In this document: positions 1,655 through 46,428 of the stretch, in pieces
Numbering within the stretch: the first letter of the stretch is position 1
Layout of the letters: each line of letters opens with the position of its first letter
IMG/VR virus record: IMGVR_UViG_3300020156_000003
Coordinates: 46,825-110,824 of that record
Length of the DNA: 64,000 nucleotides
From: a virus
Taxonomy: Duplodnaviria > Heunggongvirae > Uroviricota > Caudoviricetes
Reading direction: 5' to 3' (one strand)
Made by a program: the position numbers and the translations under genes
The notes under the pieces: generated by a model
What the model saw: the letters and a program-made list of their open reading frames with translations, nothing else
Told to the model about the DNA's origin: nothing
The model's database searches: none

Positions 1655-1669
1655 ATGAAAGGAGAGAAA

Positions 1670-1894: not shown

Positions 1895-1910
1895 AAATGG
1901 CGGCGCGCAT

Positions 1911-1926
1911 AAGTCACAAATGACTT
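1911..1926. promoter_or_regulatory. Operator palindrome
   Basis: AAGTCACAAATGACTT in the intergenic region before the lysis genes. Confidence 0.5.
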
Positions 1927-2022
1927 CCATGTCCGACATTTCTTTGCTAGAATGCCTGGCAAACCTTTGCGAGCGAATGACGAAGGCATCGACATGACAC
2001 TGACAAAATTGAAGGATTTGAA

Positions 2023-17957: not shown

Positions 17958-18024
17958 TATAATGTGCGTGTTGGACGTTGACGCGAGTCGGCGACCTTGT
18001 TCGGCAGCATTGCGGGGAATCAAA

Positions 18025-19191
18025 ATGGCAACAAAAAGACAAACGCCAGGCGGCAAGTGGGAATACATCATCAAGCGCTCCAAGCTCCTGGAGAAGCCGA
18101 TCTACCTGACCTTCGATGACGAGGCCGAGGGTGACGCCTACGTCGCCAAGCTCGAAGCGCTCCTAGACCGCGGCGTGGTGCCGCACGAATACCAAAAGCA
18201 AGGCGAGAAGTACGTGCTGCTGGCCGAGCTGATTGCGGACTACTTGGTGCAGGTGCATGTGTCCGATCCGGACAGGAAAATTCTCAACGTGATCTATGCC
18301 CGCATCGGCAAGACCAGTCTGCGGCTCGTCAATTACGCTTGGGTGGAAGGCTGGATCGGCGACATGAAGACGCAGTTGAATTTGAAGCCAGGTACGATTC
18401 GTCACCACGTCGGCGCGCTCGGGCGCTGCTTCGATTGGGCAAGCCGGCGCAACGTCGTGCCGCTGGTGATCAACCCGATCAGGCAACTGCCAAAGAGCTA
18501 CGCGCAGTACAGCGAGCGCGACGCGCAACTGGCGCGCGCCGTCGACGACGACCATGTGCGCCAGGAGGACGAGGAACGTGACAGGCGTCTCGAAGAAGGG
18601 GAGGAGCAGCGGATCCGGCAGATCCTCGACGGCCACAAGCCTGAAGGCCGGCAGCGGGCAATGGCGCTGCGCTATCAGGGCGCCATCGAGCTGCTGTTCG
18701 ACCTGGCGCTGGAGACGGCGATGCGAATGCGGGAAATGTTCACGCTGACCCTGGATCAAGTCGACCTGGCGCGAAAGACGGTCTTTCTCGACAAGACCAA
18801 GAATGGCGACAAGCGGCAGGTGCCGCTGTCGTCGGTGGCGCTGTCGCGCATTCAGCGCTACATGGAGCAGGTGAGGGCCGCAGAGCGCGGCATGGAGGGG
18901 TTCAGCTTCGAGGGCAAGCAGCTCTTTCCTTGGTGGGATGGCTCGCTTGAGCGGGACGAATTGCGGCGCATTACGGCGCTGTTATCGCGCCAGTACGCGC
19001 GTGTTTTTGAGGCGGCCGGCTGTCACGATCTGCGCTTTCACGACTTGCGCCACGAAGCCACCAGTCGCTTCTTCGAGCGCACGCAGTTGCAGGACTTCGA
19101 GATCATGAAGATCACCGGCCACAGTTCCACACGGATGCTGCGGCGCTATTCCAACCTACGCGGCAGCGTGCTGGCCGACAAGCTCTGGTAG
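18025..19191 (+). CDS. int: Tyrosine recombinase (integrase)
   Basis: C-terminal catalytic motifs LRFHDLRHEATSRFFE...ITGHSSTRMLRRYSNL. Lies adjacent to the attP core. Confidence 0.9.
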   Translation: MATKRQTPGGKWEYIIKRSKLLEKPIYLTFDDEAEGDAYVAKLEALLDRGVVPHEYQKQGEKYVLLAELIADYLVQVHVSDPDRKILNVIYARIGKTSLRLVNYAWVEGWIGDMKTQLNLKPGTIRHHVGALGRCFDWASRRNVVPLVINPIRQLPKSYAQYSERDAQLARAVDDDHVRQEDEERDRRLEEGEEQRIRQILDGHKPEGRQRAMALRYQGAIELLFDLALETAMRMREMFTLTLDQVDLARKTVFLDKTKNGDKRQVPLSSVALSRIQRYMEQVRAAERGMEGFSFEGKQLFPWWDGSLERDELRRITALLSRQYARVFEAAGCHDLRFHDLRHEATSRFFERTQLQDFEIMKITGHSSTRMLRRYSNLRGSVLADKLW

Positions 19192-20952: not shown

Positions 20953-23031
20953 ATGCAGATGGCAATGACCGACCGAATTTTCATCATGCGTGAGGCAATT
21001 GGGAAGCTCACGCAAATGCTCGCAGGCAAAAGTGTGCAAGTTACGCAACGCGGCATCTCTGCTTACGTGCGTGCTGACGCCAAGGGTCGTCCCATCCTGG
21101 TCAACTTGCCCTATATCCCCGACAACGCCACCGACGAACTGCTGGACGCGATCCAGGGCTTCCTCGACCACGAAGTTGCGCACATTCTCTTTACCGACTT
21201 CAATGCGATGGACGAGGCGCAGCGTCACAACGCCGGCGGGATGCTGAACTTGATCGAAGACAGCCGCATCGAGCGCGCAATGGCCGATCGCTTCCAGGGT
21301 TCTGCTGAAAACATGGCCCGCATGGGCAAATTCTTCCTCGACAAGTACACCACGCCGAAGATGAACGAGGCGATCAAGAAAGGCGACAAGCACACGCTGA
21401 CCGGCGTGCTGATGGTGCCGCTGATTCGCGCAATGGCCGGCCAGCAAGTCTTCGCCGAGTTCATGAAGGACAAGATGGAGCACGTCGAGGAGGAATACAA
21501 CCGCATCAAAGACCTGGCGCCGCAGATTGCTGCCGCCTCCAGCACGAAAGACTGCCTGGAGTTGGCGAAGACGATTACGACGCGCTTGCGCGACGGCGTG
21601 CCGAAGCCCGCACCGAAGGACGAGGAAGAAGATCCGGCCGCAGCACCGATGCCGATCCCGATGCCTGGTGGTGGCAGCGGCAAGCCCGCGAACAAGAGCA
21701 AGGGCGCCGGCAAGAACAAGAGCAAGCCCGCACCGAAGGACGAGGAGGAAGAAAAAGACCCGACCGCCGGTGACGAGGAAGATGAGAAGGATCCGGCCGA
21801 CCCGAGCGAGGAAGAAAAAGACCCCACTGCCAGCGGCGACGAGAGCGAGGAAGAAAAAGACCCGAGCGCCCCCTCCGACGAGGATGAAGACGAGGATGTC
21901 GGCGCACCTGGCGACGAGGATGACGAAGGCGACATGTCTAAGGGCACCGCAAGCGACGGCGATGACGGCGAGGGCGGCGACGCGACTGGTAGTGCGCCTT
22001 CGCCCCCGACTGGCGAAGAAACCGAATTGCCTGAAGGCGGCAGCGCGTCGTGGGATGCCATCGACCGTGAAACGGCGAAGGACTACGACGACCTGGCATC
22101 GAACATCATCACCAACACGACTGCCCACGTCGCCTCGCACGCCGATTACCTCGTCTACTCAAAGGATCAGGACATCATCGAGCCGCTGCGTGTCGGTCGC
22201 GAGTACAAGGACTCGATGCTGACCGCCTTGCAGGACAAGGTCGATCACATGGTCGGCCCGCTCCAGAAAGACCTGGAGCGCGCGATCGCCGCGCGCAGCC
22301 TGTCGCAGTGGAATCCGGGCCACCGTTCGGGCCGCCTGAACGCATCGGCGCTGTCGCGCTTGGCGGTCAACGACGATCGCGTGTTCCGACGCAAGACCGA
22401 AGTCACCAGCAAGGATGTGGCGGTCGAACTGCTGATCGATATGTCCGGCTCGATGGACGGCTCCAAGATTCACACCGCGGCGCAGACTGCGTATGCCTTG
22501 TGCAACGTGCTGGAGCGCATCGGCATCCAATGCGAAGCGGTCTGCTTTACCACCGGCATGGGTAATTGCGGCGACCACGCGGCGATGCAGGCGGAGGAGG
22601 CAAAGATCGGGCGCAAGTATTCGCGCTCCGAGCAGCTTTACATGCCGATCCTCAAGAGCTTCAATGAGCGGCTGTCCACTGACGTGAAGAAGCGTTTCGG
22701 TTGGCTGCCCTACACGCAATCCATGCGTAACAACGTCGACGGCGAGTGCGTCGAGATCGCCGGTATGCGGCTGATGGGCCGCAAGGAGAAGGGCAAGATC
22801 CTGATGGTGCTGTCTGACGGCGCACCGAACTGCTACGGCAATACCAGGACGCTCGGTCCGCATCTGAAGAAGGTGGTGGAGAACCTGACGCGCGCCGGTT
22901 TGAACGTGATCGGCATCGGCATCGAGTCCAACGACGTGGAACGCTTCTATCCGAAGCACATGGTTCTGAACAAGGTCGAGGAGCTGCCGCTTGCTGTGAT
23001 GAAGGAGCTGCGCCAGCTCATCCTGAAGTAA
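20953..23031 (+). CDS. CobT-like von Willebrand factor A (vWA) domain protein with an internal acidic repeat region.
   Basis: MIDAS motif DMSGSMDGS (DxSxS). The C-terminal vWA fold is typical of phage CobT-like proteins. It is paired with the downstream AAA+ gene. Confidence 0.85.
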   Translation: MQMAMTDRIFIMREAIGKLTQMLAGKSVQVTQRGISAYVRADAKGRPILVNLPYIPDNATDELLDAIQGFLDHEVAHILFTDFNAMDEAQRHNAGGMLNLIEDSRIERAMADRFQGSAENMARMGKFFLDKYTTPKMNEAIKKGDKHTLTGVLMVPLIRAMAGQQVFAEFMKDKMEHVEEEYNRIKDLAPQIAAASSTKDCLELAKTITTRLRDGVPKPAPKDEEEDPAAAPMPIPMPGGGSGKPANKSKGAGKNKSKPAPKDEEEEKDPTAGDEEDEKDPADPSEEEKDPTASGDESEEEKDPSAPSDEDEDEDVGAPGDEDDEGDMSKGTASDGDDGEGGDATGSAPSPPTGEETELPEGGSASWDAIDRETAKDYDDLASNIITNTTAHVASHADYLVYSKDQDIIEPLRVGREYKDSMLTALQDKVDHMVGPLQKDLERAIAARSLSQWNPGHRSGRLNASALSRLAVNDDRVFRRKTEVTSKDVAVELLIDMSGSMDGSKIHTAAQTAYALCNVLERIGIQCEAVCFTTGMGNCGDHAAMQAEEAKIGRKYSRSEQLYMPILKSFNERLSTDVKKRFGWLPYTQSMRNNVDGECVEIAGMRLMGRKEKGKILMVLSDGAPNCYGNTRTLGPHLKKVVENLTRAGLNVIGIGIESNDVERFYPKHMVLNKVEELPLAVMKELRQLILK
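21601..22039 (+). repeat. Low-complexity acidic tandem repeats (EEEKDP units) within the cobT-like gene.
   Basis: PAPKDEEEDP / KPAPKDEEEEKDPTAGDEEDEKDPADPSEEEKDPTASGDESEEEKDPSAPSDEDEDED. Confidence 0.7.
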
Positions 23032-23051
23032 CACCGGATCGCGTGCAGGAT

Positions 23052-23067
23052 AAGTCACAACTGACTT
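23052..23067. promoter_or_regulatory. Operator palindrome
   Basis: AAGTCACAACTGACTT, followed about 20 nt later by TATCAT. Confidence 0.55.
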
Positions 23068-23161
23068 GCGTTTCCTGCCCGCTGACCGTATCATTCTTTC
23101 TGTCGCAGTAACAAAAACAGTTTTAGTTCATCGGGCAAATGCCCCTTTGTGGAGGATAGAA

Positions 23162-24364
23162 ATGACCGTTTCCAACGACAAGATCACCTGCAAAATCTGC
23201 GGTGCCAAAGAACACATCATCAAGACCCATCTCCAGAAGGATCATCCGGACTGGACGGTCGAGCGCTACCAGGAGCAGTTTCCCGAAGCGCCGCTGATGT
23301 CGGAGTTCGCCAAAGACCTGCTGAAGAAAAAGCAGGCTGAAAAGGCTGCTGCCGAAGGCGGCACGACGATGGCGATGGCTGGCACTGCCGCTGCCGCAGC
23401 GCCCGCCAATGTGGCGACGCTGATCCCGAAAGGCACCGTCATGAAGAAGGCGCTGCACGAAATCTTCGAGCTTGGCAAGGTGAAGGCCGCCATGAGCGCC
23501 AAGGGCGACCCGATCCCGATCTCCGTGATGTCGGCGCATGAGCATCAGGGCATGGTGCCGCCCGTCTCGGACAACTACGTCTACGAGATCGACGAGCTGA
23601 AGAACGTGATCCTGTCGCTCGAACTGAATATCCCTTGCTTGGTTTGGGGCCACAAGGGCGCGGGCAAGTCTGAGTTGCTTGAGCAGGTGGCCGCGCGCAC
23701 GAACCGCCCGATGATTCGCGTCCAGCACACGGTCAACACCGAAGAAAGCCACATCGTCGGTCAGTGGACGGTCAAGGCCGGCGCCACCGAGTTCGAGCTG
23801 GGGCCGCTGCCGCTGGCGATGCTCAATGGCTGGATCTACTGCGCCGACGAATACGACTTCGGTATGCCGTCTGTCCTGGCGGTCTATCAGGCCGTCCTTG
23901 AAGGTAAGTCACTGGTGATTAAAGAGGCTCCGGCGCACCTGCGCGTCATCAAGCCGCACAAGGACTTCCGTTTCGTCGCCACTGGCAATACCAACGGATC
24001 GGGCGACGAGTCGGGCCTCTATCAAGGCACGCTGATCCAGAACAGTGCCAACTACGACCGCTTCGGCATGGTGATCAACAAGAAGTACATGGATAAGCGC
24101 GCCGAGAGCCAGATTCTCCAGAACCACTGCAAGCTGGTACCGGCCGACGCGGACAAGATGGTCGAGTTCGCCAACCTTGTGCGCCAGTCCTACGACGCGG
24201 CGAAGATTTCCGACACGATCTCGCCGCGCACCCTGATCTACGCCAGCAAGATCGGCGTGATGCGCGGCTCCTTCCGCCAGGGCTTGCAACTGTCGTTCAT
24301 CAACAAGCTGTCCAAGATCGACCGCGAAGTCGCGGACGGCCTCGCACAACGCATCTTCGGGTAA
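23162..24364 (+). CDS. CobS-like / MoxR-family AAA+ ATPase
   Basis: Walker A GHKGAGKSEL. AAA+ core similar to phage CobS. The N-terminus has a Cys/His cluster CKICGAKEHIIKTHLQKDH. Confidence 0.85.
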   Translation: MTVSNDKITCKICGAKEHIIKTHLQKDHPDWTVERYQEQFPEAPLMSEFAKDLLKKKQAEKAAAEGGTTMAMAGTAAAAAPANVATLIPKGTVMKKALHEIFELGKVKAAMSAKGDPIPISVMSAHEHQGMVPPVSDNYVYEIDELKNVILSLELNIPCLVWGHKGAGKSELLEQVAARTNRPMIRVQHTVNTEESHIVGQWTVKAGATEFELGPLPLAMLNGWIYCADEYDFGMPSVLAVYQAVLEGKSLVIKEAPAHLRVIKPHKDFRFVATGNTNGSGDESGLYQGTLIQNSANYDRFGMVINKKYMDKRAESQILQNHCKLVPADADKMVEFANLVRQSYDAAKISDTISPRTLIYASKIGVMRGSFRQGLQLSFINKLSKIDREVADGLAQRIFG

Positions 24365-24369
24365 GGACT

Positions 24370-25116
24370 ATGCAGCCGGCAATCAGCTTTCAAGAGAATG
24401 TCGGCCTCGTCCACTTGCAGGCGAAGAAAGCCTTCAAGTGGGCGTCAGGCGCGAACACAGGGATGACCTACGAGGACTGTTTTCAGGAAGCCTCACTGGC
24501 ATTCGTGCTGGCGGCGCAGGGTTACGACCCTGACGCCGGCGTCAAATTCAGTGCCTACTACACGCAGGTCGCGTTCAGCCAGTTTCACAAGGCGATCGGT
24601 CGCATGACCGGCGTCAAGCGCTTGAGTCCGGACATGCGCGAGGAGATTGAGGCGCGCAAGGCTGAGAACGAGCGCCGCGCCGCGCAGGCATTGCCACCGC
24701 TGCCGGACATTAACTATTCACTGCCGACCGAGAACTTCTCGACGATGTCGGCGATGGGTGAGGAGGGCGGCGATCCCTTCGAGGCGAGCCTGGCATCGGA
24801 GACGCAGTCGCCCGAGGACATTGTCGCGTTCAACCAGCTATGGCAGCAAGCGACAGCAAACCTGTCGCCCTTGGCAAAGCTGATGGTGGAGTGGCTGCGC
24901 GACCCGCCGCCCGAACTGCTGAAAGAGCTGGACTGCCAGATCGCGTATGCGGAAGAAGCGGCGGCGTGCGGTCGACGAGCCTACGGGATGCGTGACGGCA
25001 TCTCCATCAACAACGTATCGAAGTTCATCGGCATGATCGGCGATGTCAGCAAGCGCGAATTGACGCTGGCTGAAGCCGAGCTGATGGAGGTCGTGAAAAG
25101 GATCGAGGGGGCGTGA
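24370..25116 (+). CDS. Sigma-70 family sigma factor-like protein
   Basis: Region 2 match: YEDCFQEASLAFVLAAQGYDPDAGVKFSAYYTQVAFSQFHKAI aligns with the sigma70 region 2 signature DLIQEGNIGLmkAvdkFDp.rGyrFSTYAtwwIrqaI. Confidence 0.55.
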   Translation: MQPAISFQENVGLVHLQAKKAFKWASGANTGMTYEDCFQEASLAFVLAAQGYDPDAGVKFSAYYTQVAFSQFHKAIGRMTGVKRLSPDMREEIEARKAENERRAAQALPPLPDINYSLPTENFSTMSAMGEEGGDPFEASLASETQSPEDIVAFNQLWQQATANLSPLAKLMVEWLRDPPPELLKELDCQIAYAEEAAACGRRAYGMRDGISINNVSKFIGMIGDVSKRELTLAEAELMEVVKRIEGA

Positions 25117-25825: not shown

Positions 25826-26071
25826 ATGAAAGGTGGCACTTACGCAGAAGCCCTGAAGGCAGGCTTCACCGAGCAGCAAGCGGCTTTCTTCAGCCGCTTG
25901 GGCGGCGAAACGCGCGACGAGGCAGTCGACGAGATCAAGCGCCAGGAAAGACTGGCCGCGCGCGACCGCGCCTTCAAGCGCAAGCAGGCAATCAGCAAGG
26001 CGGTCAATGACGCAAGTTGGCTCATTTTCGGTGCGCTGGTCGTCGCCACTGGCTACATGGTGTTCGCATGA
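25826..26071 (+). CDS. Small C-terminally membrane-anchored protein
   Basis: AGAGAGG RBS. C-terminal hydrophobic helix. Confidence 0.4.
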   Translation: MKGGTYAEALKAGFTEQQAAFFSRLGGETRDEAVDEIKRQERLAARDRAFKRKQAISKAVNDASWLIFGALVVATGYMVFA

Positions 26072-29000
26072 GCATCAACCACGCATTGTCCGTTCGCTCG
26101 GACTTCTCCATCGGACAATCGCTGCTCCAGGTGGATCACATCATCGACGAAGCCAAGAAGCACGGCTACGAGTCGGTGGCACTGGTCGATGATATGTCCA
26201 TCCACAACATGGTCGACTTCTCCAACCGCTGCAAGAAGGCGGGCATCAAGCCCATTATCGGCTGTCGTCTGCGCGTGGTCGATGACCCGACCTACCGCAA
26301 GCCGGCAAAAGCGTCCGGCGAGAAGGAAAAGCCGAACCCGCTCGTCATGATCAAGGCGTATGCCGTTGACGAACGCGGCATCTCCAGCCTGCTCAAGCTC
26401 TTGTCCAAAGCCAACAGCAAGGACTACTTCTATTACCACAGTCGCGTTGGCTGGGCCGACGTGATGGAGTTGAAGGGTGTGACCCTCACCACCGGCGACT
26501 TCTACGGCCTGTTTAGCCACCCGAGCTACGTCGATCGTCTCATGGCACTCAAGGGCTGGCATGGCGACAACCTATATGTGGAACTGACGCCGATCGACAC
26601 GCCGCTGTTCGATACGCTGAATGCCAAAGCGCTGGCCGCCATCGAGAAGTTTGACATTCCGCCTGTCGTGTCCTACCCGTTCATGTACCGCGACAACGCC
26701 GATGCATCGACGCTCGAAGTGCTGAACGCGATCGCCAACCAGATGAAGATGTCCACGCCGTACCGGCCCAAGCAGTTCATCAAGGACTTCGGCTTCAAGC
26801 CGCCGGTGGCGCTGGCGCAGAAGGTGGTGCAGGCGGCCGGTCGCGTTGCCAAATGGAACGGGGTCAAGAACCCCGACGCCTGGAAGCAGGGCGTGCTGAA
26901 CATCGAAAAGCTGGCCGCGGCTTGCGCCTACGAGTTCAAGAAGCAGCCGGTGTCGCTGCCGCAGATGGCAGCGAACGAGTTCGAGGCGCTCGGCAAGAAG
27001 TGCATTGAGGGCTGGAAGCGGCGCTTCAGCCAGCCCGTATTGGGCCACAAGCCGACCACCGCGGAGATTGCGGTCTACCAGGAGCGCCTGAAGTATGAAT
27101 TGGGCGTGCTGAAGAAGATGGGCTTTGCCGGCTACTTCCTGCTGGTCGAGGATCTGGTGATGTGGGCCAAGACCAACGGCATCATCGTCGGCCCCGGCCG
27201 CGGTTCCGTCGGCGGCTCGCTGGTGGCGTACCTGATCGGCATCACCGACGTGGACCCGATCCGGTTCAATCTGCTGTTTGAGCGCTTCATCAACCCCGAG
27301 CGCCTGGACTTGCCCGATGCCGATCTGGACTTCATGTCCACCCGCCGCCACGAAGTCATCCAGTACCTCGCGCAGAAATACGGTGCCGACCGCGTCGCAG
27401 GCATTTCCAACTTCGCCACGCTGGCGTCGGCGTCTGCCCTGCGTGATACCGGCCGCGTGTACGAGCTGGACAATCTGACGCTGTCGGCGACCAAGCTGGT
27501 GCCGAAAGAGCACGGCCAGTCCTTTACGCTGACCGATGCCGCCAAAGCGGTGCCGGAGCTGGAGAAGTTCCGCGACGAGCATGAGGAAGTCTGGAATCAC
27601 GCCCTGAAGCTCGAAGGCGTCATGCGCAGCTTCGGTAAGCACGCTGCCGGCGTGGTCGTGGGCGGTGAGCCGCTGGTCAATCGCGCCGTCATTGAGTCGC
27701 GTGCCAGCGACGAAGAATCCGGCGTGCCGGTGGTCAATTGGGACAAGCGCGTGGTCGAGGATTGGGGCCTGGTCAAGATGGACATTCTGGGCCTGTCCAC
27801 GCTCGACGTGCTGGAGATCGCCCGACAATACATCAAGGCGCGTCATGGCAAGGATGTCAATTACACGCTCTTGCCGCTCGAAGAACCGGACATCATGGAC
27901 GCGTTCGCCCGCGGCGACACCACCGGCGTGTTCCAGTTCGAGTCGCCTGGCATGAAAAAGCTGCTGCGCGATCTCGCCAAGGGCGGCAGGCTGACCTTCG
28001 AGGACATCACCGCGGCGACCGCGCTGTACCGACCTGGCCCGATGGACTCCGGCCTGATGGATGACTTCGTGCAAATCAAGCAGGGCGCCAAGAATCCGGA
28101 ATACGAGCATCCCAACATGGAAGCGGCCCTGAAGGACACCTACAGCGTCATCGTCTATCAGGAGCAGGTCATGCAGCTTGCCGTCGACCTGGCCGGCTTT
28201 ACTCGCGCCGAAGCGGATCATCTGCGCAAAGCGATGGGTAAGAAGGACAAGGACAAGATGGCGGAGATGCGCGACAAGTGGGTCAAGGGCTGCCAGTCGC
28301 ACTCCGGCATGAGTGAGAGCGCCGCCGGTGACCTGTTCGACAAGATCGAAGCCTTCGCCGGCTATGGTTTCAACCGCAGCCACGCCGTCGAGTATTCGGT
28401 CATCTCCTACTGGACGATGTGGGTGCGCGTGCGCTACCCCGCCGAATACTTCGCCGCCTGTCTGTCGATCGTGGACGATGACGAGAAGATGCTCGGCTTG
28501 GTCAACGACGCCAGGGAATGTGGTATCGAAGTGCTGCCGCCCGACATCAACCTGTCCACCGACCGATTCACCATTCCGGACGACAAGCATCTGCTGGCGC
28601 CGTTCTCCAAGGTCAAGGGCATTTCCGAGAACACCGCCCGCCGCATCGTCGAGCTACGCGAGAACAACCGCTCCTGGAAGGTCGGCAAGGTCAAGAAGAA
28701 GCGCGACGGCACGACCGAGGACGTGTGGGTGCTGGATGACACGTCGCCAGTCAAGGGCCGCTTCGACACGGACGAGGAGTTCGTGATGGCGGCGGCGCAG
28801 CCTGGCTCGAAGGTCAACAGCCGCGTGGTCGAGAACCTGCGTCTGGTCGGGGCACTGGCGTCGGTCGAGAAGGGCGCCAAGCCGGCGCGCGACCTGTCGC
28901 GGCGCAAGGATCAGGTGGAACTGCTCCCTGGCCTGATCCTGGACAGCGTGAAGGCGGATCGCACCACCGATGTCACCGAGCCGTTCGTCAAAGCTAAGAT

Positions 29001-29535
29001 CATTCACATCGTCCAGGACTACCGCTCCTGCGATGCGTGCGACCTGGCAGGGCAGCCGCATCCGGCGATCCGGATGAAATCGACCGTCAAGTTCATGGTC
29101 GTCCACGACTGCCCGAACTGGCAGGAGGAGAAGACAAACAAGCTGATCGAGGGCGACTCGGCGGATTACCTGAAAGCTGCGATCAAAGGCGCTGGCCTGT
29201 CGCCCGCTGACGGGTATTACACGACGCTGGTGAAAGCCAAAAAAGACGGGAAGTTCTTGAGCAACGGGCAGATCAATGGCTGCGCGCAGTTCTTGAACCG
29301 CGAGCTGGAAGTGATCAAGCCGGCAGTGATCGTGGCGCTGGGCAGTTCGTCAATCAAGCGCTTCCTGCCTGGTCACAAGGGCGGCACTGCCGAGCTGGTG
29401 GGCAAAGCGATCTATGACGCCAAGCTCGACGCAACCATCGTCTGCGGCATCAATCCGCAGCAGATTTACCACGACGCAGCAAAGGCAGAGATCCTGCAAG
29501 CCGTGTTCGAGAAGGTCGCCGAGATTTTGTCGTAG
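26068..29535 (+). CDS. dnaE: DNA polymerase III alpha (DnaE-type) with a C-terminal UDG-fold (family 4-like) domain.
   Basis: N-terminal PHP domain. Catalytic stretch GPGRGSVGGSLVAYLIGITDVDPIRFNLLFERFINPER...LPDADLDF. The C-terminal roughly 175 aa (about 29000-29532) show UDG-family-4-like topology but with variant motifs, VHDCPNWQE in place of GEAPG and GINPQQI in place of HPSPLN. Confidence 0.9.
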   Translation: MSINHALSVRSDFSIGQSLLQVDHIIDEAKKHGYESVALVDDMSIHNMVDFSNRCKKAGIKPIIGCRLRVVDDPTYRKPAKASGEKEKPNPLVMIKAYAVDERGISSLLKLLSKANSKDYFYYHSRVGWADVMELKGVTLTTGDFYGLFSHPSYVDRLMALKGWHGDNLYVELTPIDTPLFDTLNAKALAAIEKFDIPPVVSYPFMYRDNADASTLEVLNAIANQMKMSTPYRPKQFIKDFGFKPPVALAQKVVQAAGRVAKWNGVKNPDAWKQGVLNIEKLAAACAYEFKKQPVSLPQMAANEFEALGKKCIEGWKRRFSQPVLGHKPTTAEIAVYQERLKYELGVLKKMGFAGYFLLVEDLVMWAKTNGIIVGPGRGSVGGSLVAYLIGITDVDPIRFNLLFERFINPERLDLPDADLDFMSTRRHEVIQYLAQKYGADRVAGISNFATLASASALRDTGRVYELDNLTLSATKLVPKEHGQSFTLTDAAKAVPELEKFRDEHEEVWNHALKLEGVMRSFGKHAAGVVVGGEPLVNRAVIESRASDEESGVPVVNWDKRVVEDWGLVKMDILGLSTLDVLEIARQYIKARHGKDVNYTLLPLEEPDIMDAFARGDTTGVFQFESPGMKKLLRDLAKGGRLTFEDITAATALYRPGPMDSGLMDDFVQIKQGAKNPEYEHPNMEAALKDTYSVIVYQEQVMQLAVDLAGFTRAEADHLRKAMGKKDKDKMAEMRDKWVKGCQSHSGMSESAAGDLFDKIEAFAGYGFNRSHAVEYSVISYWTMWVRVRYPAEYFAACLSIVDDDEKMLGLVNDARECGIEVLPPDINLSTDRFTIPDDKHLLAPFSKVKGISENTARRIVELRENNRSWKVGKVKKKRDGTTEDVWVLDDTSPVKGRFDTDEEFVMAAAQPGSKVNSRVVENLRLVGALASVEKGAKPARDLSRRKDQVELLPGLILDSVKADRTTDVTEPFVKAKIIHIVQDYRSCDACDLAGQPHPAIRMKSTVKFMVVHDCPNWQEEKTNKLIEGDSADYLKAAIKGAGLSPADGYYTTLVKAKKDGKFLSNGQINGCAQFLNRELEVIKPAVIVALGSSSIKRFLPGHKGGTAELVGKAIYDAKLDATIVCGINPQQIYHDAAKAEILQAVFEKVAEILS

Positions 29536-29554: not shown

Positions 29555-29621
29555 ATGTTATCCGTGCTGCGAAACGTAGTATGAGCATTCAACCGAGAAA
29601 CACTCTTTGAAGGAGAAAAAC

Positions 29622-30641
29622 ATGGCAGCACAAAAGGAAATTCCCGTCGAGGACGCCGAACTGGACGCCCTGATGGCGGAGCTGGAGGAGGCAACCGCGG
29701 ACGTGGTGGAAGTGCCGACCGCTCAAGCGGCAGCAGCGTCCGGCGGTGACGAGCTGGAAGCCCTGGAGCTGGAAGACGTGAGCGACGCGCCGGCGCCCGC
29801 ACCCGAGCAGGTGTCCGCCTCGCTGGACGAGTCGGTCGCTGAACCCGAGCCGCAGTTCATCATTCCTGGCGCAAACAAGGAGAAGGGCGAATCGGTCGAC
29901 GCCGACCTGGCTGCGCTCGAAGCCGAGCTGGCGGAAACCACCGCTACGCCCGAGCCGGTGCCGATGAAGATCAGCAAGCCGGCAGAGGCGACGCGCCGCG
30001 TGGTTGAAGGTCAGCCGACCCTGGCCGAGACTGTCGCGGCGAAGAAAGATCCCGAACCCGCCAGAACAACCCTGACCGGCGCCGCCGCCCTGAAGGCTGC
30101 CGCTGACGCAGTCGCCGCTGAACTGCCCGAGCCGGTGCCGAACCCGATGCCGAAGAAGCAGGCGGCTTCGCTGAACTACTACCTCGACATGGACAAGTTC
30201 CGTGACGAAATCCGCATCTCCAGCACCAACATCGACGACGCCATGATGCAGCAGTCGGGTCTGCGCGCCTTTTACCAGGAGCAGGCGGCCCAGGCTGAAG
30301 CGCAACACGCCCGCCTGAAGCTGCGTGCCGAGATCGTCGAGGCGGCGCTCTACAAGAAGCACCGCAAGGCGCTGCTGGACGCCGGCGAGAAGGCGACGGA
30401 GAAGATGGTCGAGGCGGAAGTGCTGCTTGATCCGGAATACGTCGCCGCCAAGAACCGCGTGATCGAAGCTGAAACCATTGCGGCGACCCGCCGCGCGGCC
30501 GTCGATGCCCTGAAGGATCGCAAGGACATGCTGGTGCAGATCGGCGCCGACCGTCGCGAAGAAGGCAAGGGCGCGCTGCGCGTGCTGGAGAACCAAAGCC
30601 TGCGTGATCGCGCTATGGCGGCTGCGGGTAAGGCCGCCTGA
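29622..30641 (+). CDS. Hypothetical protein with an acidic N-terminal half.
   Basis: GAAGGAGA RBS. Glu/Asp/Ala-rich N-terminus. Confidence 0.5.
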   Translation: MAAQKEIPVEDAELDALMAELEEATADVVEVPTAQAAAASGGDELEALELEDVSDAPAPAPEQVSASLDESVAEPEPQFIIPGANKEKGESVDADLAALEAELAETTATPEPVPMKISKPAEATRRVVEGQPTLAETVAAKKDPEPARTTLTGAAALKAAADAVAAELPEPVPNPMPKKQAASLNYYLDMDKFRDEIRISSTNIDDAMMQQSGLRAFYQEQAAQAEAQHARLKLRAEIVEAALYKKHRKALLDAGEKATEKMVEAEVLLDPEYVAAKNRVIEAETIAATRRAAVDALKDRKDMLVQIGADRREEGKGALRVLENQSLRDRAMAAAGKAA

Positions 30642-30781: not shown

Positions 30782-31645
30782 ATGGACAAAAACAAACTGA
30801 TGGAACTGATGGCCGCCAAAAAGCAGTCGATGAAAAAGACTGAAAAGACGACCAAGATCGAGCCTGGTGAAAACCGCGTCGTCATCCTCCCCGGCTGGCG
30901 CGCCATCAACAAGGATGGCGAGCTGGACGCCAACGGTGATCCGACATGGTTCCACGACTTCGGCCAGCACTTCATCAAGGATGCTGCCGACCAGATCCAG
31001 GCCGTGTATCTCTGCACTCATGCCACCTTCGAGAAGGAGTGCGCAGTCTGTTCCGCCCTGGCTGCCGCCACCCGCTCGGCCGCTGACGATGCAACGACGG
31101 AAGTCCTGGCGAAAGCCAAAGCCTCCCGTACTGTCCTCGTCAACGCGCTCATGCTGGACAGCAAGGACAACCCGAACACTCCGGTGATCCTGGAGCTGAA
31201 GCGTGGTGTGTTCGAGCAGATCGTGGACATCTGCCTCGAATACGAGGGCGCACCGCTCGACCCGAACGGCGCGATCATCCTCAAGATCAGCCGCGATGGC
31301 AAGGGCTTGAACACCAAGTACACCGCGATGCCGACCGCAAAGAAGGTGAAAGTGCCGTCCTCCGTGCTGGCGAAGGTTCACAACCTGGACGACTACGTCA
31401 AGCAGGAATCCGAAGAACAGCAGCGTCGTGCGATCGGCGCCATCAACAGCGTTGCAGGCGTTCTGCCGGCACCTGGCACTGGCGGCGACCGTCCGGCAAC
31501 TTCTGCCGCGCGTCTTGCCGGCCCGAGCAAGGGCGATGAGTTCGAGGACATTCCTGACTTCGACGCAGCGCCGGCGAAGGCTGCTGCGGCCGATCCGGCT
31601 CTCGATTCCGAGCTGGATGACCTCCTGGGCAACCTGCCGGAATAA
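30782..31645 (+). CDS. Single-stranded DNA-binding protein, T4 gp32-like.
   Basis: VNALMLDSKDNPNTPVILELKRGVFEQI resembles the gp32 stretch [31 protein letters not shown]. Candidate zinc ligands H...C-x8-C-x2-C. Acidic C-terminal tail DEFEDIPDF...DSELDDLL. Confidence 0.55.
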   Translation: MDKNKLMELMAAKKQSMKKTEKTTKIEPGENRVVILPGWRAINKDGELDANGDPTWFHDFGQHFIKDAADQIQAVYLCTHATFEKECAVCSALAAATRSAADDATTEVLAKAKASRTVLVNALMLDSKDNPNTPVILELKRGVFEQIVDICLEYEGAPLDPNGAIILKISRDGKGLNTKYTAMPTAKKVKVPSSVLAKVHNLDDYVKQESEEQQRRAIGAINSVAGVLPAPGTGGDRPATSAARLAGPSKGDEFEDIPDFDAAPAKAAAADPALDSELDDLLGNLPE

Positions 31646-31662
31646 TCCGCCGGCAGTTTGAA

Positions 31663-31691
31663 GGGCCAGCCAGTGCGCTGGCCCTTTTTCC
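31663..31691 (+). terminator. Rho-independent terminator
   Basis: GGGCCAGC-cagtgc-GCTGGCCC followed by TTTTTCCC. Confidence 0.7.
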
Positions 31692-31708
31692 CTCAAGGAG
31701 AAAATTTC

Positions 31709-32617
31709 ATGTCCACGAACAAAGTATTGCTGATCGACGCAAACAGCATCGGATACGCGTCGCAATCGGCAACCAAGCTGTCGGCTGGCGGGATGGAAAC
31801 CCAGGCCGCTTACGGCTTCATCAAGACCATGCGCGAGCTGCGCATCCAATTCCCCAAATTCACCCCGTTCGTCCTTTGGGATGGCCGCGCGGAATGGCGC
31901 TTCAAGCTGTTTCCGGACTACAAGAGCAACCGCAAGGACTCGCCGGAAAAGATCGCGATGAAAGAGTCGTACGCCAAGCAGAAGCCTTACATCGAATCCA
32001 TGCTGCGCCATCTGGGTGTGCGCCAGTTGACCTGCTTCTCCGCTGAAGCGGACGACATGGGCGGTTACTTCGCCGCCAAGCTATCGACCGCGCCTGATGC
32101 CGAGGTCGGTCTGATCACCGGCGACCGCGACTGGATCCAACTGGTGCGCAAAAACGTGTGGTGGAAAGATCCGCGTGACGATGCCCGGTACGTCGACGCC
32201 GCCAACTTCTACAAGAAGACTGGCTGCAAATCCCCGTTCGCCTTTCTGGAGACGAAGATCCTCATGGGAGACAGCTCGGACTGCATCTCCGGCGTCGGCG
32301 GGATCGGTGAAAAGGGGGCGCCAGAGTTCATCGCTGAGTTCGGGAGCGTGCGCAAGTTCTGGCAGCTCTGTGACAGCGGTGCATTCGAGCCTCGCTTGAA
32401 AAAGCACAAGAACCTTGCATCACCCGAGGGCCGCGCACTCTACAAGCGCAACTTCCAACTGATGCAACTCCTGAAGGTCGAGCCGCCGGCGAGGGCAGAC
32501 CTGAAAGTCGACACCGGAAGGTTCGACAAGGAAGCATTCGCCAACGCCTGCGAGGAGCTGGCGTTCGTCTCGATCCTGCGCAACCTGGACGAGTTCACCC
32601 TTCGATTCAAACCCTAA
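31709..32617 (+). CDS. 5'-3' exonuclease / flap endonuclease (FEN)
   Basis: N-terminal PIN-like LLIDANSIGY. H3TH motif GDSSDCISGVGGIGEKGA. Confidence 0.85.
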   Translation: MSTNKVLLIDANSIGYASQSATKLSAGGMETQAAYGFIKTMRELRIQFPKFTPFVLWDGRAEWRFKLFPDYKSNRKDSPEKIAMKESYAKQKPYIESMLRHLGVRQLTCFSAEADDMGGYFAAKLSTAPDAEVGLITGDRDWIQLVRKNVWWKDPRDDARYVDAANFYKKTGCKSPFAFLETKILMGDSSDCISGVGGIGEKGAPEFIAEFGSVRKFWQLCDSGAFEPRLKKHKNLASPEGRALYKRNFQLMQLLKVEPPARADLKVDTGRFDKEAFANACEELAFVSILRNLDEFTLRFKP

Positions 32618-32630: not shown

Positions 32631-33638
32631 ATGACATCATCTGCACTGATCGCCGATTTCGACAAAGCCTTCGGCGGCAACGACGACAACGCCACACCGT
32701 CGCAATACGTCAACACCGGCTTTGCGCCGCTGAACTACATCATCTCGGGTCGCCACGACGGCGGCCTGGCCTACGGGCGCATGTATGAGGTCTTCGGCGA
32801 ATCTTCGACGGGCAAGACCGCACTGGCAACCGACTGGATGGCGGAGGCGCAGCGCATGGGCGGCGCCGCGGCCTTCATGGATTGGGAGCGCAGCTTCAAC
32901 GAAGACCTGGCCGTGCATGGCTATGGGTTGAAGGCTGAGAAGCCGATCTGGCTCTACAAGAAGCCGAACACATGGGAAGAAGGCAACACGGTCGCGGCGA
33001 AATACTGTCAGTGGCTTCGCGAGAAAAAGGTCATCAAGGATGACGCGCCGATCCTGATTGTGCTGGACTCGATTGCCTCTGCCATCCCGAACTCGATGGC
33101 AGAGAAGGACTTCTCCGAGTACAGCATGAACGACACCACGGCGCTGGCACGCGTGACCTCGACCACGCTGAAGTCGATGGCGCTGTTTGCCGAGCGCTTC
33201 AACGCCATCTTCGTCTACCTGAATCAGATGCGCCTGAAACCCGGCGTGGTCTACGGCGATCCGCGCACCACTCCTGGCGGCAAGGCGATGGAATTCTACG
33301 CGACGGCACGCCTGGCGCTCGGCCGCGAGAAGATCATGCAGCAGCAGGCGGGCGGCAAGGAATTCGTCGGTCAGAAGATCAATATCCAGTGCGTCAAGTC
33401 GAAGCTGACCAAGCCGTTCAAGGAAACCGCGATGCGCCTGACCTTCGATGAGTCCGGTATCGCCTACTTCGACAAGGAATTCAGCCTGGTCGAAACGCTG
33501 GTGGATCTGAAGAAGATCGCGACGCCGCGCAACGGCTATGTGGAATATGAAGGCACGCAGTATTCCAAGAAGCAGATGGCGGAGAAGATTCGCACTGAAG
33601 GACTTGGCCCGAAGATGGTTGCCATGCTGATGGCCTAA
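32631..33638 (+). CDS. RecA/UvsX-family recombinase
   Basis: Walker A GESSTGKT. Walker B ILIVLDSIASAIP. RecA-fold context. Confidence 0.8.
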   Translation: MTSSALIADFDKAFGGNDDNATPSQYVNTGFAPLNYIISGRHDGGLAYGRMYEVFGESSTGKTALATDWMAEAQRMGGAAAFMDWERSFNEDLAVHGYGLKAEKPIWLYKKPNTWEEGNTVAAKYCQWLREKKVIKDDAPILIVLDSIASAIPNSMAEKDFSEYSMNDTTALARVTSTTLKSMALFAERFNAIFVYLNQMRLKPGVVYGDPRTTPGGKAMEFYATARLALGREKIMQQQAGGKEFVGQKINIQCVKSKLTKPFKETAMRLTFDESGIAYFDKEFSLVETLVDLKKIATPRNGYVEYEGTQYSKKQMAEKIRTEGLGPKMVAMLMA

Positions 33639-35828: not shown

Positions 35829-36893
35829 ATGGAGAAGCCCTTTGGCTTGATCAGTGATAGCCATCACCACAACTGGTCTGCCTTTTCGACAACCCTGGCG
35901 ACCGGCGTCAACAGCCGGCTTCAGGAGATCCTGGACGAGACGACGCGCTGCGCCGTCGAGGTCAAGAAGGCGGGTGGCGACACGATGTATCACGGTGGCG
36001 ACCTGTTCCACGTTCGCGGGAGCATCGCGCCGTCGGTCTTGGTGCCGACCCTGGACTGCTACCGTCACATCATCGACGACCTTGGCATTCGCGTGGTCAT
36101 CAACGCCGGCAACCATGACCTCGAAGGCAAGGAGGCGTCGCGCGTGTCGTCGGCAATCACCGCGCTCGAAGGCATCGGCTGCTACGTGGTCAACAAGCCG
36201 AACTACGGCTCCTTCGACCGCATGGTCGTAATCCCCTGGATCCCCAACATCGAGGACTTGAAGAAGGCGATCGAGCACATCGATCCGATCGACCGCAAGG
36301 ACTGCGACCTGCTGCTGCACGCGCCGATCGACGGCGTGATTCCTGGCCTGCCCGACCACGGTCTGACCGACGCGTACCTGGCCGGTCTGGGCTACCGCCG
36401 CGTGTTCGCCGGTCACTACCACCATCACAAGGACTTCGGCAACGGCGTCTACAGCATCGGCAACCTGACCCCGCAGACCTGGAGCGACATCGGAACGAAG
36501 GCGGGCTTTTTGATCTGCACGCCGACCGAAGTCAGGTGGCACAAGTCGCACGCACCCGGCTTCGTGGAAATCGACGGCGCGACTGATCCGGACGAAATCC
36601 CGCTGATCGTCGATGGCAACTATGCGCGCGTGAAGATCAACAGCGCCAAAGCGGCTGACGTGGAAGCGATGCGTCAATTCCTGATGGATAGCGGCGCCAA
36701 GGGCGTGACCGTGTTGCAAATCAAGGATCCGACTGCCGCGGTGTCGATGCGCGTCGGTGGCGCGCTGCTCAAGGCCGGCGCCACCCTGGAGCAGTCGATC
36801 AACGACTTCATCAAGGCGAAGGGTTTCGCCCGCGAGCCTGACCTGGCGAAAGTGTGCCAGGAGATTCTGACCAACGTGAGGGCTGTCGTATGA
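35829..36893 (+). CDS. sbcD: SbcD/Mre11-like nuclease
   Basis: Metallophosphoesterase motifs DSHH, GGDLFH, GNHD and GHYHH. Paired with the SbcC-like gene. Confidence 0.8.
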   Translation: MEKPFGLISDSHHHNWSAFSTTLATGVNSRLQEILDETTRCAVEVKKAGGDTMYHGGDLFHVRGSIAPSVLVPTLDCYRHIIDDLGIRVVINAGNHDLEGKEASRVSSAITALEGIGCYVVNKPNYGSFDRMVVIPWIPNIEDLKKAIEHIDPIDRKDCDLLLHAPIDGVIPGLPDHGLTDAYLAGLGYRRVFAGHYHHHKDFGNGVYSIGNLTPQTWSDIGTKAGFLICTPTEVRWHKSHAPGFVEIDGATDPDEIPLIVDGNYARVKINSAKAADVEAMRQFLMDSGAKGVTVLQIKDPTAAVSMRVGGALLKAGATLEQSINDFIKAKGFAREPDLAKVCQEILTNVRAVV

Positions 36894-37153: not shown

Positions 37154-37590
37154 GCGACTTCATCGTCAAGGCGATCGTCGACCAGCTTGCCGACGCCGGC
37201 TGCCCGTTGACCGCGCAACAGGTCAACGCGCTTGTTGATGTGCGCAAGAAGTCGATGGCAAAGGCACGCGAGGAGATCAAGAACGCCGTGCGGGCGTCGC
37301 TTCTCAAGGACGGCATCGATACCTCTGACATCAAGCGAGCGGCGCGTGAAATGACTCAGGATACGGTCAATAACACGCTTAAGGAGCGCAACATCGAGCA
37401 GATGGTGGACGCACAAATCCAGAAAGCAATCGCTGCCGCTTTCTCGCCGGCGACAGACATCAAACTCATGGTGAAAAGCGCCATCGAGCGTGAGGCGGCG
37501 AAGGTAGCGCACGAATACATCAAGACCAACATGAAGGTGGATGTTTCGATCAACGAAACGGGCCACTACGTACAAGGGGGAACCTTCTAA
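37150..37590 (+). CDS. Hypothetical protein
   Basis: ORF with a coupled start. Confidence 0.45.
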   Translation: MSDFIVKAIVDQLADAGCPLTAQQVNALVDVRKKSMAKAREEIKNAVRASLLKDGIDTSDIKRAAREMTQDTVNNTLKERNIEQMVDAQIQKAIAAAFSPATDIKLMVKSAIEREAAKVAHEYIKTNMKVDVSINETGHYVQGGTF

Positions 37591-40574: not shown

Positions 40575-41131
40575 ACCTGACACTACGCGGCGACTTCACC
40601 TGCTTGGAACGCGCGCGCATCTACGCCACCGCGGCACACGCGGCTGTCCAGCAAAAGCGCAAATACACCAACGAGCCTTACATCGTCCACCCGACCGAGG
40701 TCGCCGAGATTGTCATGGCGGTGCCGCACACGACTGAAATGGTGATGGCGGCTTTCCTACATGACGTGGTCGAGGACACTGGCGTGACCATCAAGGACAT
40801 CGTCCTGGAGTTCGGGCCGACTGTGGCGCTCTACGTCGATGGACTGACCAACGTCGCCAAGCCGGCCGACGGCAACCGCGCCAAGCGCTTCCAGATGAAC
40901 CTCGACCATCTGGCGATCCAATGCGCGGAAGTGCAGACGATCAAGGTCGCCGACCTCATTTCCAACACATCCACCATCGTCGCGTATGACCCGAAGTTTG
41001 CCAAGGTCTACCTGGAGGAGAAGCGTCAAGTCTTGCTGGCGCTGACTCAGGCAGACCCCACGCTGTTGAAGCGGGCATGGAACATCCTCAACGAATCACT
41101 GGCAACCCTCAACCAACTGGAGAAAGCATGA
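40568..41131 (+). CDS. HD-domain (p)ppGpp hydrolase-like protein (RelA/SpoT-homolog hydrolase domain, SAH/Mesh1-like).
   Basis: NEPYIVHPTEVAEIV...AAFLHDVVEDTGVTIKDIVLEFGPTVALYVDGLT aligns with the SpoT/Mesh1 HD signature EPYIxHPLxVA...AALLHDVVEDT...I...FG..VA.LV.GvT. Confidence 0.7.
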   Translation: MVDLTLRGDFTCLERARIYATAAHAAVQQKRKYTNEPYIVHPTEVAEIVMAVPHTTEMVMAAFLHDVVEDTGVTIKDIVLEFGPTVALYVDGLTNVAKPADGNRAKRFQMNLDHLAIQCAEVQTIKVADLISNTSTIVAYDPKFAKVYLEEKRQVLLALTQADPTLLKRAWNILNESLATLNQLEKA

Positions 41132-46290: not shown

Positions 46291-46428
46291 ATGACGATTC
46301 TTTTCAATGGCAGCACCGTGTTCTGGATTGCGCTGATCTGTTTGGCGGTCGGCGGAATCCTCGGTGCGGCTGCCGGCATCGAAGTCAATCAAAAAGCCAA
46401 CAACCTCCTGAAGAAAAAGAAGACATGA
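46291..46428 (+). CDS. Small transmembrane protein
   Basis: TGATATG coupling with the upstream gene. One hydrophobic helix. Confidence 0.35.
   Translation: MTILFNGSTVFWIALICLAVGGILGAAAGIEVNQKANNLLKKKKT

Follow-up and report, generated by a model that had tools for sequence, protein, structure and literature searches.

A uracil-DNA glycosylase fold in place of the OB fold and tau-binding domain of a phage DnaE-type DNA polymerase

Several viral replicases have been described in association with a uracil-DNA glycosylase (UDG) fold. In a survey that left the C-terminus of phage C-family polymerases unassigned, the UDG domains of the SPO1 and T5 polymerases were likened to vaccinia D4-A20 and, on that analogy, put forward as processivity factors (PMC3201878). 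The N4-like UDG-PolA enzymes (cluster 17, Czernecki et al. 2023) have unconserved catalytic residues, and their UDG domain was proposed to be a processivity module (PMC10201439). In the SP15-like PolA and in the mpox replicase, cryo-electron microscopy located the UDG on the template and 5' of the active site (preprint 10.1101/2025.03.26.645540, Missoury et al. 2025). For C-family enzymes, a DnaE-UDG architecture was described by Timinskas et al. 2014 in Nucleic Acids Research as the 'DnaEX' variant, PHP-Pol3-(HhH)2-UDG (PMC3919608). Whereas the A- and B-family counterparts have structures, the C-family fusion has so far been noted only as a domain-architecture oddity. Here we analysed such a fusion, encoded in a 64,000-nucleotide stretch (positions 46,825 to 110,824 of the Caudoviricetes record IMGVR_UViG_3300020156_000003, IMG/VR; hereafter the window) of a phage genome of ~111 kb.

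The window protein has the same architecture as DnaEX and the phage protein family phrog_405, with the OB fold and the C-terminal domain (CTD) replaced by a PF03167 domain. This architecture is real, recurrent and already published, and the fusion is not unique to the window. Bacterial-type replicases normally use an OB fold, a tau-binding domain and a sliding clamp, and this phage lineage has swapped two of them for the fold of a repair enzyme. The lineage includes medically relevant phage-plasmids of the SSU5/pHCM2 type from Salmonella, Klebsiella, E. coli and Acinetobacter. Knowledge of the domain's role would reveal how a minimal DnaE replisome can function in the absence of tau, and could explain the host-holoenzyme-independent replication of large phage-plasmids; the window protein, a single polypeptide with a putative metal site retained, is a good experimental entry point. 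The sequence comparisons presented here add an Asp/Asn pair at the former catalytic positions, an all-or-none Cys3-His set, a separable (HhH)2+UDG module, a candidate clamp motif and a possible relationship to PolA-borne UDG domains.

Fold of the C-terminal domain

The polymerase gene (26068-29535, + strand) encodes 1155 amino acids (aa) in the list of open reading frames (ORFs) and corresponds to a DnaE-type (C-family) DNA polymerase with a C-terminal UDG-like domain. Its ATG at 26068 shares the sequence ATGA with the stop codon of the upstream ORF, and translation ends at a TAG (29533-29535). Pfam searches identified PHP (PF02811, aa 8-152), DNA_pol3_alpha (PF07733, aa 308-575), finger (PF17657, aa 578-745), HHH_6 (PF14579, aa 819-870) and UDG (PF03167, aa 1016-1134) matches. 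The first four all exceeded the Pfam cut-off, indicating that the PHP, palm, fingers and (HhH)2 core is present. TIGR00594 scored 729.6 bits against a cut-off of 434, and phmmer matched the (HhH)2 domain to residues 735-855 and 792-916 of the E. coli and Taq Pol III alpha subunits. The E. coli-type DnaE profile NF004226 was covered only at positions 9-851 of 1146 (775 bits, cut-off 1002), and no Pfam match to an OB fold was found anywhere in the polymerase. Because the NF004226 match ends at position 851 and no OB fold was detected by Pfam, the OB fold and the tau-binding CTD have no counterpart; their place is occupied by a UDG fold of the family-4 type.

A first reading of the window, made from sequence only, had described a DnaE core lacking the usual OB and tau-binding C-terminus, which the Pfam and NF004226 results bear out. 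The boundaries it gave had to be moved: the DnaE-homologous stretch stops near aa 944 and not at about aa 980, and the UDG fold spans aa 972-1155 (~184 aa), slightly more than the proposed ~175 aa. Compared with the E. coli and T. aquaticus Pol III alpha subunits, the PHP, palm, fingers and (HhH)2 domains are homologous, with 41% identity in the palm and fingers. Unlike cellular DnaE1, the window polymerase has no OB fold, no tau-binding CTD and no PHP motif I His, and the QADMF motif cannot be aligned.

PF03167 scored 31.6 bits with the whole protein and 35.5 bits with the C-terminal piece alone, above the gathering cut-off of 24.3. The UDG fold of the C-terminal domain was supported by four independent tests. 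A single-sequence phmmer search retrieved the T. maritima UDG (1vk2) at E 8e-9, the alignment pairing CDAC with CTAC, VHDCPNWQEEKT with VGEGPGEEEDKT, VKAKKD with VKCRPP and NGCAQFL with AACGHFL (window and 1vk2, respectively). When a ten-member family profile was compared with the PDB, the S. tokodaii UDG (4zbx) was matched at E 5.4e-21 across the entire domain and 1vk2 at E 5.8e-19. This alignment set GINP against TYHP of 4zbx; the match to UdgX (E ~1e-10) was weaker than those to classical family 4. An AlphaFold2 model of aa 745-1155, built from a 62-sequence alignment, had a mean pLDDT of 89.5 and a pTM of 0.57. Foldseek searches of the PDB returned 1l9g and 1vk2 as top matches (TM 0.85-0.87, root-mean-square deviation 2.2 Å, ~188 columns), followed by UdgX; across 1l9g, 1vk2 and 1ui0, the TM ranged from 0.81 to 0.87 and the deviation from 2.0 to 2.2 Å. 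The N-terminal half of the model matched the fingers and (HhH)2 region of Pol III alpha.

The window domain therefore shares its fold and the order of its elements with the cellular family-4 UDGs (T. maritima TM0511, T. thermophilus UDGA and S. tokodaii UDG) and with UdgX. This order had been proposed by the sequence-only reading and agrees with the 1vk2 and 4zbx alignments and with the Foldseek superpositions. Both of the computational checks suggested at that stage, a search against UDG-family profiles and an AlphaFold model, returned the UDG fold. All the peptides it quoted were found in the translation: CDACDLAG (988-995), VHDCPNWQE (1012-1020), KPAVIVALGSSS (1084-1095) and GINPQQI (1127-1133), then YHD. 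The coordinates of the domains, motifs and neighbouring genes are listed in Table 1.

Table 1. Domains and motifs of the polymerase and genes of the surrounding block, in window coordinates.
Feature	Position (nt)	Strand	Basis or remark
PHP region, aa 1-300	26068..26967	+	Pfam PHP aa 8-152; alignment with E. coli and four phage orthologues
Palm/thumb (Pol3 core), aa 308-575	26989..27792	+	PF07733 E 2.9e-81
Fingers, aa 578-745	27799..28302	+	PF17657 E 1.6e-53; gene split of relatives falls just past here
(HhH)2 / beta-binding-type domain, aa 746-944	28303..28899	+	HHH_6 aa 819-870
Conserved linker RRKDQVELLPGLIL, aa 945-958	28900..28941	+	Conservation among relatives
UDG-fold domain, family-4 type, aa 972-1155	28981..29532	+	PF03167, profile against PDB, Foldseek
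C988-x2-C991 ... H998 (putative metal site)	29029..29061	+	Aligned to CTAC/CKKC of 1vk2, 4zbx
Motif A position, HDCPN for GE(A/G)PG	29104..29118	+	D1014 at water-activating Glu site
YYTTLVKAKK, aa 1050-1059	29215..29244	+	Counterpart of family-4 'vYiTNvvKCRP'
C1072, counterpart of fourth Fe-S Cys of family-4 UDGs (putative metal site)	29281..29283	+	Aligned to Cys of 'AACGHFL' / 'TACSPYL'
Motif B position, GINPQQI for [YF]HPS/A	29446..29466	+	N1129 at catalytic His site
DnaB-like helicase	7181-8638	+	
DnaG-like primase	10493-11806	+	
ATP-dependent ligase	13325-14746	+	
Tyrosine recombinase	17962-19191	+	
CobT/CobS-like pair	20953-23031, 23066-24364	+	
Sigma factor	24370-25116	+	
UvsY-like protein (probable)	29607-30641	+	
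gp32-like single-stranded DNA-binding protein (SSB)	30782-31645	+	
Flap endonuclease (FEN)	31658-32617	+	
RecA/UvsX-like	32631-33638	+	
Mre11/Rad50-like	35829-36893, 37590-39533	+	
RuvC-like	41077-41748	+	
Class II ribonucleotide reductase	42672-45158	+	
ThyX	46425-47261	+	
MazG-like pyrophosphatase	47669-48304	+	

Substituted motifs and possible roles of the domain

In family-4 UDGs and UdgX, water is activated by the motif A Glu of GE(A/G)PG, and N91 and the motif B His178 of UdgX form hydrogen bonds with uracil and labilise the glycosidic bond (PMC10359453). Conservation of the corresponding positions was counted over 62 family members, and residues were compared between five phage lineages. 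The position of D1014 is occupied by Asp in 61 of the 62 relatives; in the family pattern of motif A, x-D-x-[PA]-x, only this Asp is near-invariant. N1129 was conserved to the same extent (Asn in 61/62). The uracil-reading Asn is replaced by T1053, a position at which the relatives have Thr (38), Gly (18), Ser (4), Ala (1) or Cys (1) and never Asn. The stacking Phe is replaced by I1027, with Leu (33), Met (23) or Ile (1) in 57 of the relatives and Phe in only 3. Y1050, T1052, K1056 and K1059 were invariant in the five lineages and, together with D1014, G1127 and N1129, make up a set that is invariant or nearly so despite the divergence of these phages. The 1vk2 and 4zbx alignments agree with the sequence-only reading in the placement of the substituted motif A (HDCPN) and motif B (GINP) and in the retention of the upstream CxxC; a change from [YF]-H-P to [IF]-N-P describes the motif B substitution more accurately.

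Family-specific models gave scores well below their cut-offs: 40-46 bits for the family-4 models TIGR00758 and NF040953 (cut-offs 125.3 and 250) and 34-38 bits for the UdgX model TIGR03914 (cut-off 190). UdgX has GEQPG as motif A and forms a covalent bond through His109 in the R-loop KRRIH; the window protein has HDCPN, and the string KRRIH is absent from the polymerase translation. Because the motif residues are replaced and the NCBIfam scores lie at 34-46 bits against cut-offs of 125-250, canonical uracil excision by the domain is unlikely. The sequence-only reading had left a choice between a catalytically dead sensing module and a novel activity. Both are still live, but the weight shifts towards 'not a uracil glycosylase', since the N91 and H178 equivalents are Thr and Asn and the N91 site is never Asn among the relatives.

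The domain shares the CxxC and the last Fe-S Cys with family-4 UDGs, and differs from them in motif A, the motif B His, the uracil-reading Asn, the stacking Phe and the third Cys. The four-Cys [4Fe-4S] site of family 4 is thus incomplete: C988, C991 and C1072 correspond to Cys1, Cys2 and Cys4, and the Cys3 site is A1057, a position that is never Cys in the 62 family members. A His located seven residues past the CxxC (H998) co-varies with the three cysteines. C988, C991, H998 and C1072 were together present in 44 of the 62 relatives and together absent in the other 18; the set was found in the nickie lineage and was missing from RHEph10, ANB28 and the SSU5-type members. Such joint presence or absence suggests an optional Cys3-His metal site in the family, although it may reflect only a few evolutionary events. 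The window clade probably keeps a structural metal site (C988, C991, H998 and C1072) derived from the family-4 [4Fe-4S] site. It also differs from the SSU5-type members, which lost the Cys/His set, in having an extra basic hairpin in the (HhH)2 domain. We infer that these SSU5-type (enterobacterial) members are those seen in the 2014 paper.

Among the UDG domains borne by other polymerases, the family profile scored 98.7 bits on the N-terminal UDG domain of STP12 PolA and 83.7 on P744 PolA, both of them unclassified, and 71.2 on the Nachito polymerase (SPO1-like). On the cellular family-4 enzymes it reached 78.5 (4zbx), 71.9 (1vk2) and 59.6 bits (1ui0), and ~44 on UdgX. The PolA-borne domains share the motif A Asp with the DnaE-borne family and likewise lack the uracil-reading Asn. 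These similarities are suggestive of a polymerase-associated UDG clade joining DnaE- and PolA-borne domains. In both STP12 (phage vB_PmeS_STP12, L005 3504-6418) and P744 (Yersinia phage, L007 2600-5580), a dCMP/cytidine deaminase is encoded directly upstream of the PolA gene, and P744 has in addition a dUTPase, a pyrimidine hydroxymethylase and a thymidylate synthase upstream of PolA. These neighbours hint at a thymidine-modification chemistry in those phages, which was not seen in the window.

Comparison with the described fusions showed both similarities and differences. Like the window protein, the N4-like UDG-PolA is a replicative phage polymerase bearing a family-4 UDG fold with unconserved catalytic residues; unlike it, the enzyme belongs to the A family, carries the domain at the N-terminus and has a helix and a hairpin deleted, whereas the window fold is complete, C-terminal and attached to a C-family enzyme. 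The SP15- and SPO1-like UDG-PolAs also have a UDG fold physically coupled to a replicase, but keep the motif B His (and, in SP15-like enzymes, E-x-P) where the window protein has Asn; they are found in phages whose thymidine is hypermodified and remove deoxyuridine (dU) ahead of the fork, and the window showed no modification pathway. The sequence-only reading had stated that SPO1-type UDG-like proteins are separate genes. The separate genes that bear the name 'SPO1 DNA polymerase-related protein' encode cellular family-4 UDGs and UdgX, but in SPO1 itself the UDG domain is fused at the N-terminus of an A-family polymerase. The poxvirus D4/E4 UDG with A20 can be likened to the window domain as a UDG-fold protein that is integral to a viral replicase, contacts DNA and lies on the template ahead of the active site; it differs in being a catalytically active family-1 UDG that works in trans with the B-family polymerase of a eukaryotic virus.

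The window domain could be an active, non-canonical glycosylase scanning the template ahead of the polymerase site, in which D1014 would activate water and the specificity would be broader or directed to a base other than uracil. Such an enzyme would be the C-family counterpart of the SP15-like PolA-UDG enzymes, with an altered pocket (Thr/Gly, Asn, aliphatic). The near-invariant D1014 and N1129 lie exactly at catalytic motif positions, and the E-x-P spacing of motif A is kept as D-x-P in most members. The active phiLo UDG-PolA works through E53, P55 and H178 and removes dU five nucleotides ahead on the template, the ligase and FEN encoded by the phage could process the resulting lesions, and two PolA-borne domains score higher with the family profile than any of the solved cellular UDGs. 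However, essentially all members carry substitutions at both uracil-polarising positions, the stacking aromatic has disappeared, the family-4 models stay far below their cut-offs, and no apurinic/apyrimidinic (AP) endonuclease or PolX was seen in the window. In addition, ThyX is present, with no sign in the window of the thymidine-hypermodification pathway that accompanies active UDG-PolAs. We consider glycosylase activity of this kind unlikely.

The reading we favour takes the gene as the phage's own replicative C-family polymerase. Its UDG-fold domain would no longer excise uracil, because the Asn has become T1053, the His has become N1129 and the stacking Phe position is aliphatic. Since the most conserved residues (D1014; Y1050, T1052, K1056 and K1059; G1127 and N1129) sit at the ancestral pocket and DNA-groove motif positions, the ancestral DNA-binding face may have been reused in a non-catalytic manner: at the usual site of the OB fold, the domain would hold the template strand or thread it, and would be an intrinsic DNA-handling or processivity element of the polymerase. 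We put the chance at about even that a non-catalytic UDG-fold domain acts in template or DNA handling in place of the OB fold. This role would parallel that of the inactive N4-like UDG domain and the catalysis-independent role of poxvirus D4.

In this proposal, a motif located upstream of the UDG domain would additionally tether the enzyme to the host beta clamp. QVELL (aa 949-953, nt 28912-28926) looks like a beta-clamp-binding motif and has the form DQxEL[LM] in the family, with Q949 conserved in 59, L952 in 61 and [ML]953 in all of the 62 relatives; the motif is also kept in nickie, RHEph10, SSU5 and ANB28. We hypothesize that DQxEL[LM] is the element that would tether the polymerase to the clamp. 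Its identification as the positional equivalent of the E. coli QADMF motif was rejected, as MAFFT puts QADMF ~25 residues further on. The isoelectric point (pI) of the UDG domain is 8.6 in the window protein versus 4.9-6.2 in nickie, RHEph10, SSU5 and ANB28.

Several points weigh against the proposed DNA-handling role. An acidic residue, D1014, persists at the water-activating position and MUG-type glycosylases tolerate an Asn in motif B, so that the domain may have a residual or altered glycosylase activity. The placement of the domain relative to the template comes from domain order only and, with a pTM of 0.57, the packing between domains is uncertain. Four of the five lineages have an acidic domain, which fits poorly with a generic electrostatic DNA clamp, and we gave less weight to this form of the proposal. 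QVELL is not aligned with the E. coli QADMF and is modelled as helical, and the ~47 kb of genome beyond the window could encode a clamp. Finally, literature searches for a functional study of the DnaE-UDG fusion found none, only the architecture mention of 2014.

A bolder proposal, in our view quite improbable, is that the domain is a template-strand 'read-ahead' module. It would be either an Asp/Asn glycosylase with a Cys3-His metal centre, or a sensor of flipped or damaged bases that stalls or marks the fork. If this were true, the UDG fold would have been recruited to template entry independently in all three viral replicative polymerase families, the other two cases being SP15-like PolA (fused) and poxvirus PolB (in trans); the slightly higher scores of the PolA-borne domains would also point to transfer of the module from one polymerase family to an unrelated one.

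Distribution and split orthologues

The family phrog_405 ('DNA polymerase') matched the window protein end to end (aa 3-1154), and phrog_4335 (421 aa, 'unknown function') matched aa 745-1155, corresponding to a stand-alone C-terminal module. A tblastn search with the C-terminal 211 aa showed that the domain ends the 'DNA polymerase III alpha' of other phages, including nickie-like phages of Pseudomonas (~42% identity), Stenotrophomonas phages, RHEph10-like phages of Rhizobium, and SSU5-like phages and phage-plasmids of Salmonella, Klebsiella and E. coli (~27% identity). For nickie, ANB28, RHEph10 and SSU5, whose DnaE C-terminal domains are homologous to that of the window (25-42% identity in the UDG-like part), E values ranged from 1e-15 to 6e-50 with a coverage of 99-100%. 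Relatives were also present in Burkholderiales records, and a metagenomic contig of 110.8 kb encodes a protein identical to a neighbour of the polymerase. A match in Xanthomonas phage JGB6 was left out, the record being fragmented by frameshifts and mis-annotated. Overall, the domain occurred in hundreds of sequences in the databases and in no fewer than five divergent lineages of phages. The polymerase gene had no megablast match among 50,697 phage records, and its relatives were found at the protein level only.

The sequence-only reading had called a direct fusion to DnaE unusual. This is a fair description, but the fusion was published in 2014 (PMC3919608), defines a whole PHROG family and is flagged in GenBank and JGI annotations. 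For RHEph10 gp048, the note in GenBank includes 'uracil-DNA glycosylase-like', and some relatives are named 'uracil-DNA glycosylase family protein' by NCBI and JGI.

Most database relatives of the domain are HHH_6 + UDG proteins of 385-423 aa, encoded on contigs of 100-113 kb. In syntenic Acinetobacter contigs of ~100 kb (L009/L010 4414-8266), DnaE is split into three ORFs, which encode in order a 785-aa PHP-palm-fingers protein, a 63-aa remnant of a NUMOD4 homing endonuclease and a 421-aa (HhH)2+UDG protein. Since (HhH)2+UDG forms a separate ORF in the split orthologues, this unit can be regarded as a putative functional module able to act in trans. In the same Acinetobacter elements, the RecA encoded beside the split DnaE carries an intein. 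The chromosome of Polaromonas sp. P1(28)-13 (L012 5526-8936) contains a syntenic region with many broken genes, among them CobT and DnaE, each in three parts; this suggests either sequencing frameshifts or the decay of a prophage.

These distributions bear on whether the domain could be a decaying, functionless remnant of a once-active UDG fusion. Its canonical motifs are degraded, the metal-site residues were lost wholesale in 18 of the 62 members, and the domain is less conserved than the polymerase core: the identity of the UDG-like domain between lineages (25-42%) is roughly that of the PHP domain, the core being better conserved. A remnant is nevertheless hard to reconcile with a domain that has been kept over so many divergent lineages and database sequences, that combines near-invariant residues with a high-confidence compact fold, and that retains an intact ORF even apart from the polymerase. 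We regard this explanation as very improbable. The conservation of D1014 and N1129, the cross-lineage identity and the retention of its own ORF when the gene is split are all consistent with selection acting on the domain.

Polymerase core and genomic neighbourhood

The catalytic Asp triad of the polymerase, D417, D419 and D572 (nt 27316-27324 and 27781-27783), aligned with D401, D403 and D555 of the E. coli enzyme and was kept in all five phage orthologues of the alignment, as expected from sequence for an intact active site and a working DnaE core. PHP motif I reads ALSVRSDFS (region 26068-26130), and both His of the canonical HxH are absent from the window polymerase and from all four phage orthologues aligned. 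Because these histidines are absent, the PHP domain is probably not a metal-dependent proofreader. A DnaQ/RNase_T-type exonuclease (186 aa, PF00929, 83.8 bits) is encoded at 53891-54451 (+ strand), ~24 kb downstream of the polymerase, and is a candidate proofreader in trans.

The (HhH)2 domain contains a strongly basic insertion, NNRSWKVGKVKKKRDGTTEDVWVLDDTSPVKG (aa 866-897, nt 28663-28758, + strand), modelled as a confident beta-hairpin with strands at residues 126-133 and 139-145 of the aa 745-1155 module. This hairpin is clade-specific; the window clade and Acinetobacter P0065 have it, and nickie, RHEph10, SSU5, ANB28 and E. coli lack it.

Genome context was surveyed over + strand ORFs of at least 200 aa in the window, which corresponds to a + strand block for replication, recombination and nucleotide metabolism (Table 1). 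The replication module around the polymerase comprises the DnaB-like helicase, the primase, the ligase, the gp32-like SSB, FEN and the DnaQ-like exonuclease. The position of the gene inside this complete module, together with the Asp triad and the TIGR00594 score, argues for a working replicase. Among the ORFs surveyed, no clamp was detectable by Pfam, and no clamp loader, stand-alone UDG, dUTPase, AP endonuclease or PolX was found.

The ORF directly downstream of dnaE (344 aa, 29607-30641, + strand) is syntenic in all relatives and matched only PHROGs of 'unknown function'. In a structure model, its N-terminal half was disordered and acidic and carried two copies of a short helix (ELxALMAELE-like, aa 16-31 and 97-111). 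The C-terminal helical hairpin was modelled with a pLDDT >95 and had T4 UvsY as its only significant PDB match (TM 0.83-0.85, E ~1e-3). The likely identity of this protein is a recombination mediator of the UvsY type that has a long acidic extension. A clamp- or tau-like partner of the polymerase had been considered and was rejected, as the structure prediction and the fold search point to the mediator.

The content of this block is relevant to another possible role of the UDG-fold domain, mainly as a protein-interaction platform standing in for the tau-binding CTD, through which the polymerase would be coupled to partners in the phage replisome rather than to DNA. The partners proposed would be the helicase-primase, the SSB, the DnaQ-like exonuclease or the UvsY-like protein. 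The domain sits where the tau-binding CTD, a protein-binding domain, is normally found (PMC3919608), and is acidic in most lineages (pI 4.9-6.2). The separate (HhH)2+UDG subunit of the split orthologues must dock non-covalently onto the core, and the phage supplies a helicase, a primase, an SSB and an exonuclease, with no tau in the window. Yet the most conserved residues lie at the ancestral substrate-pocket motifs and not on a new surface; no partner was identified, and the conserved downstream neighbour appears to be a UvsY-like mediator and not a replisome adaptor. An interaction platform is in our opinion a doubtful explanation, and a DNA-handling role remains the reading we favour.

Upstream of the replication genes, all relatives encode a CobT-like VWA protein (692 aa in the window) and a CobS/MoxR-like AAA_5 ATPase (20953-24364, + strand). 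The ATPase of the window has an N-terminal match to a ROS/MucR-type zinc finger of 25.2 bits, against a cut-off of 25.4. At the start of the window (1-2000), the GC content is 0.49 versus ~0.60 elsewhere, and a 489-aa protein with three DUF285 repeats is encoded at 185-1654; this gene may have been recently acquired or may be surface-related.

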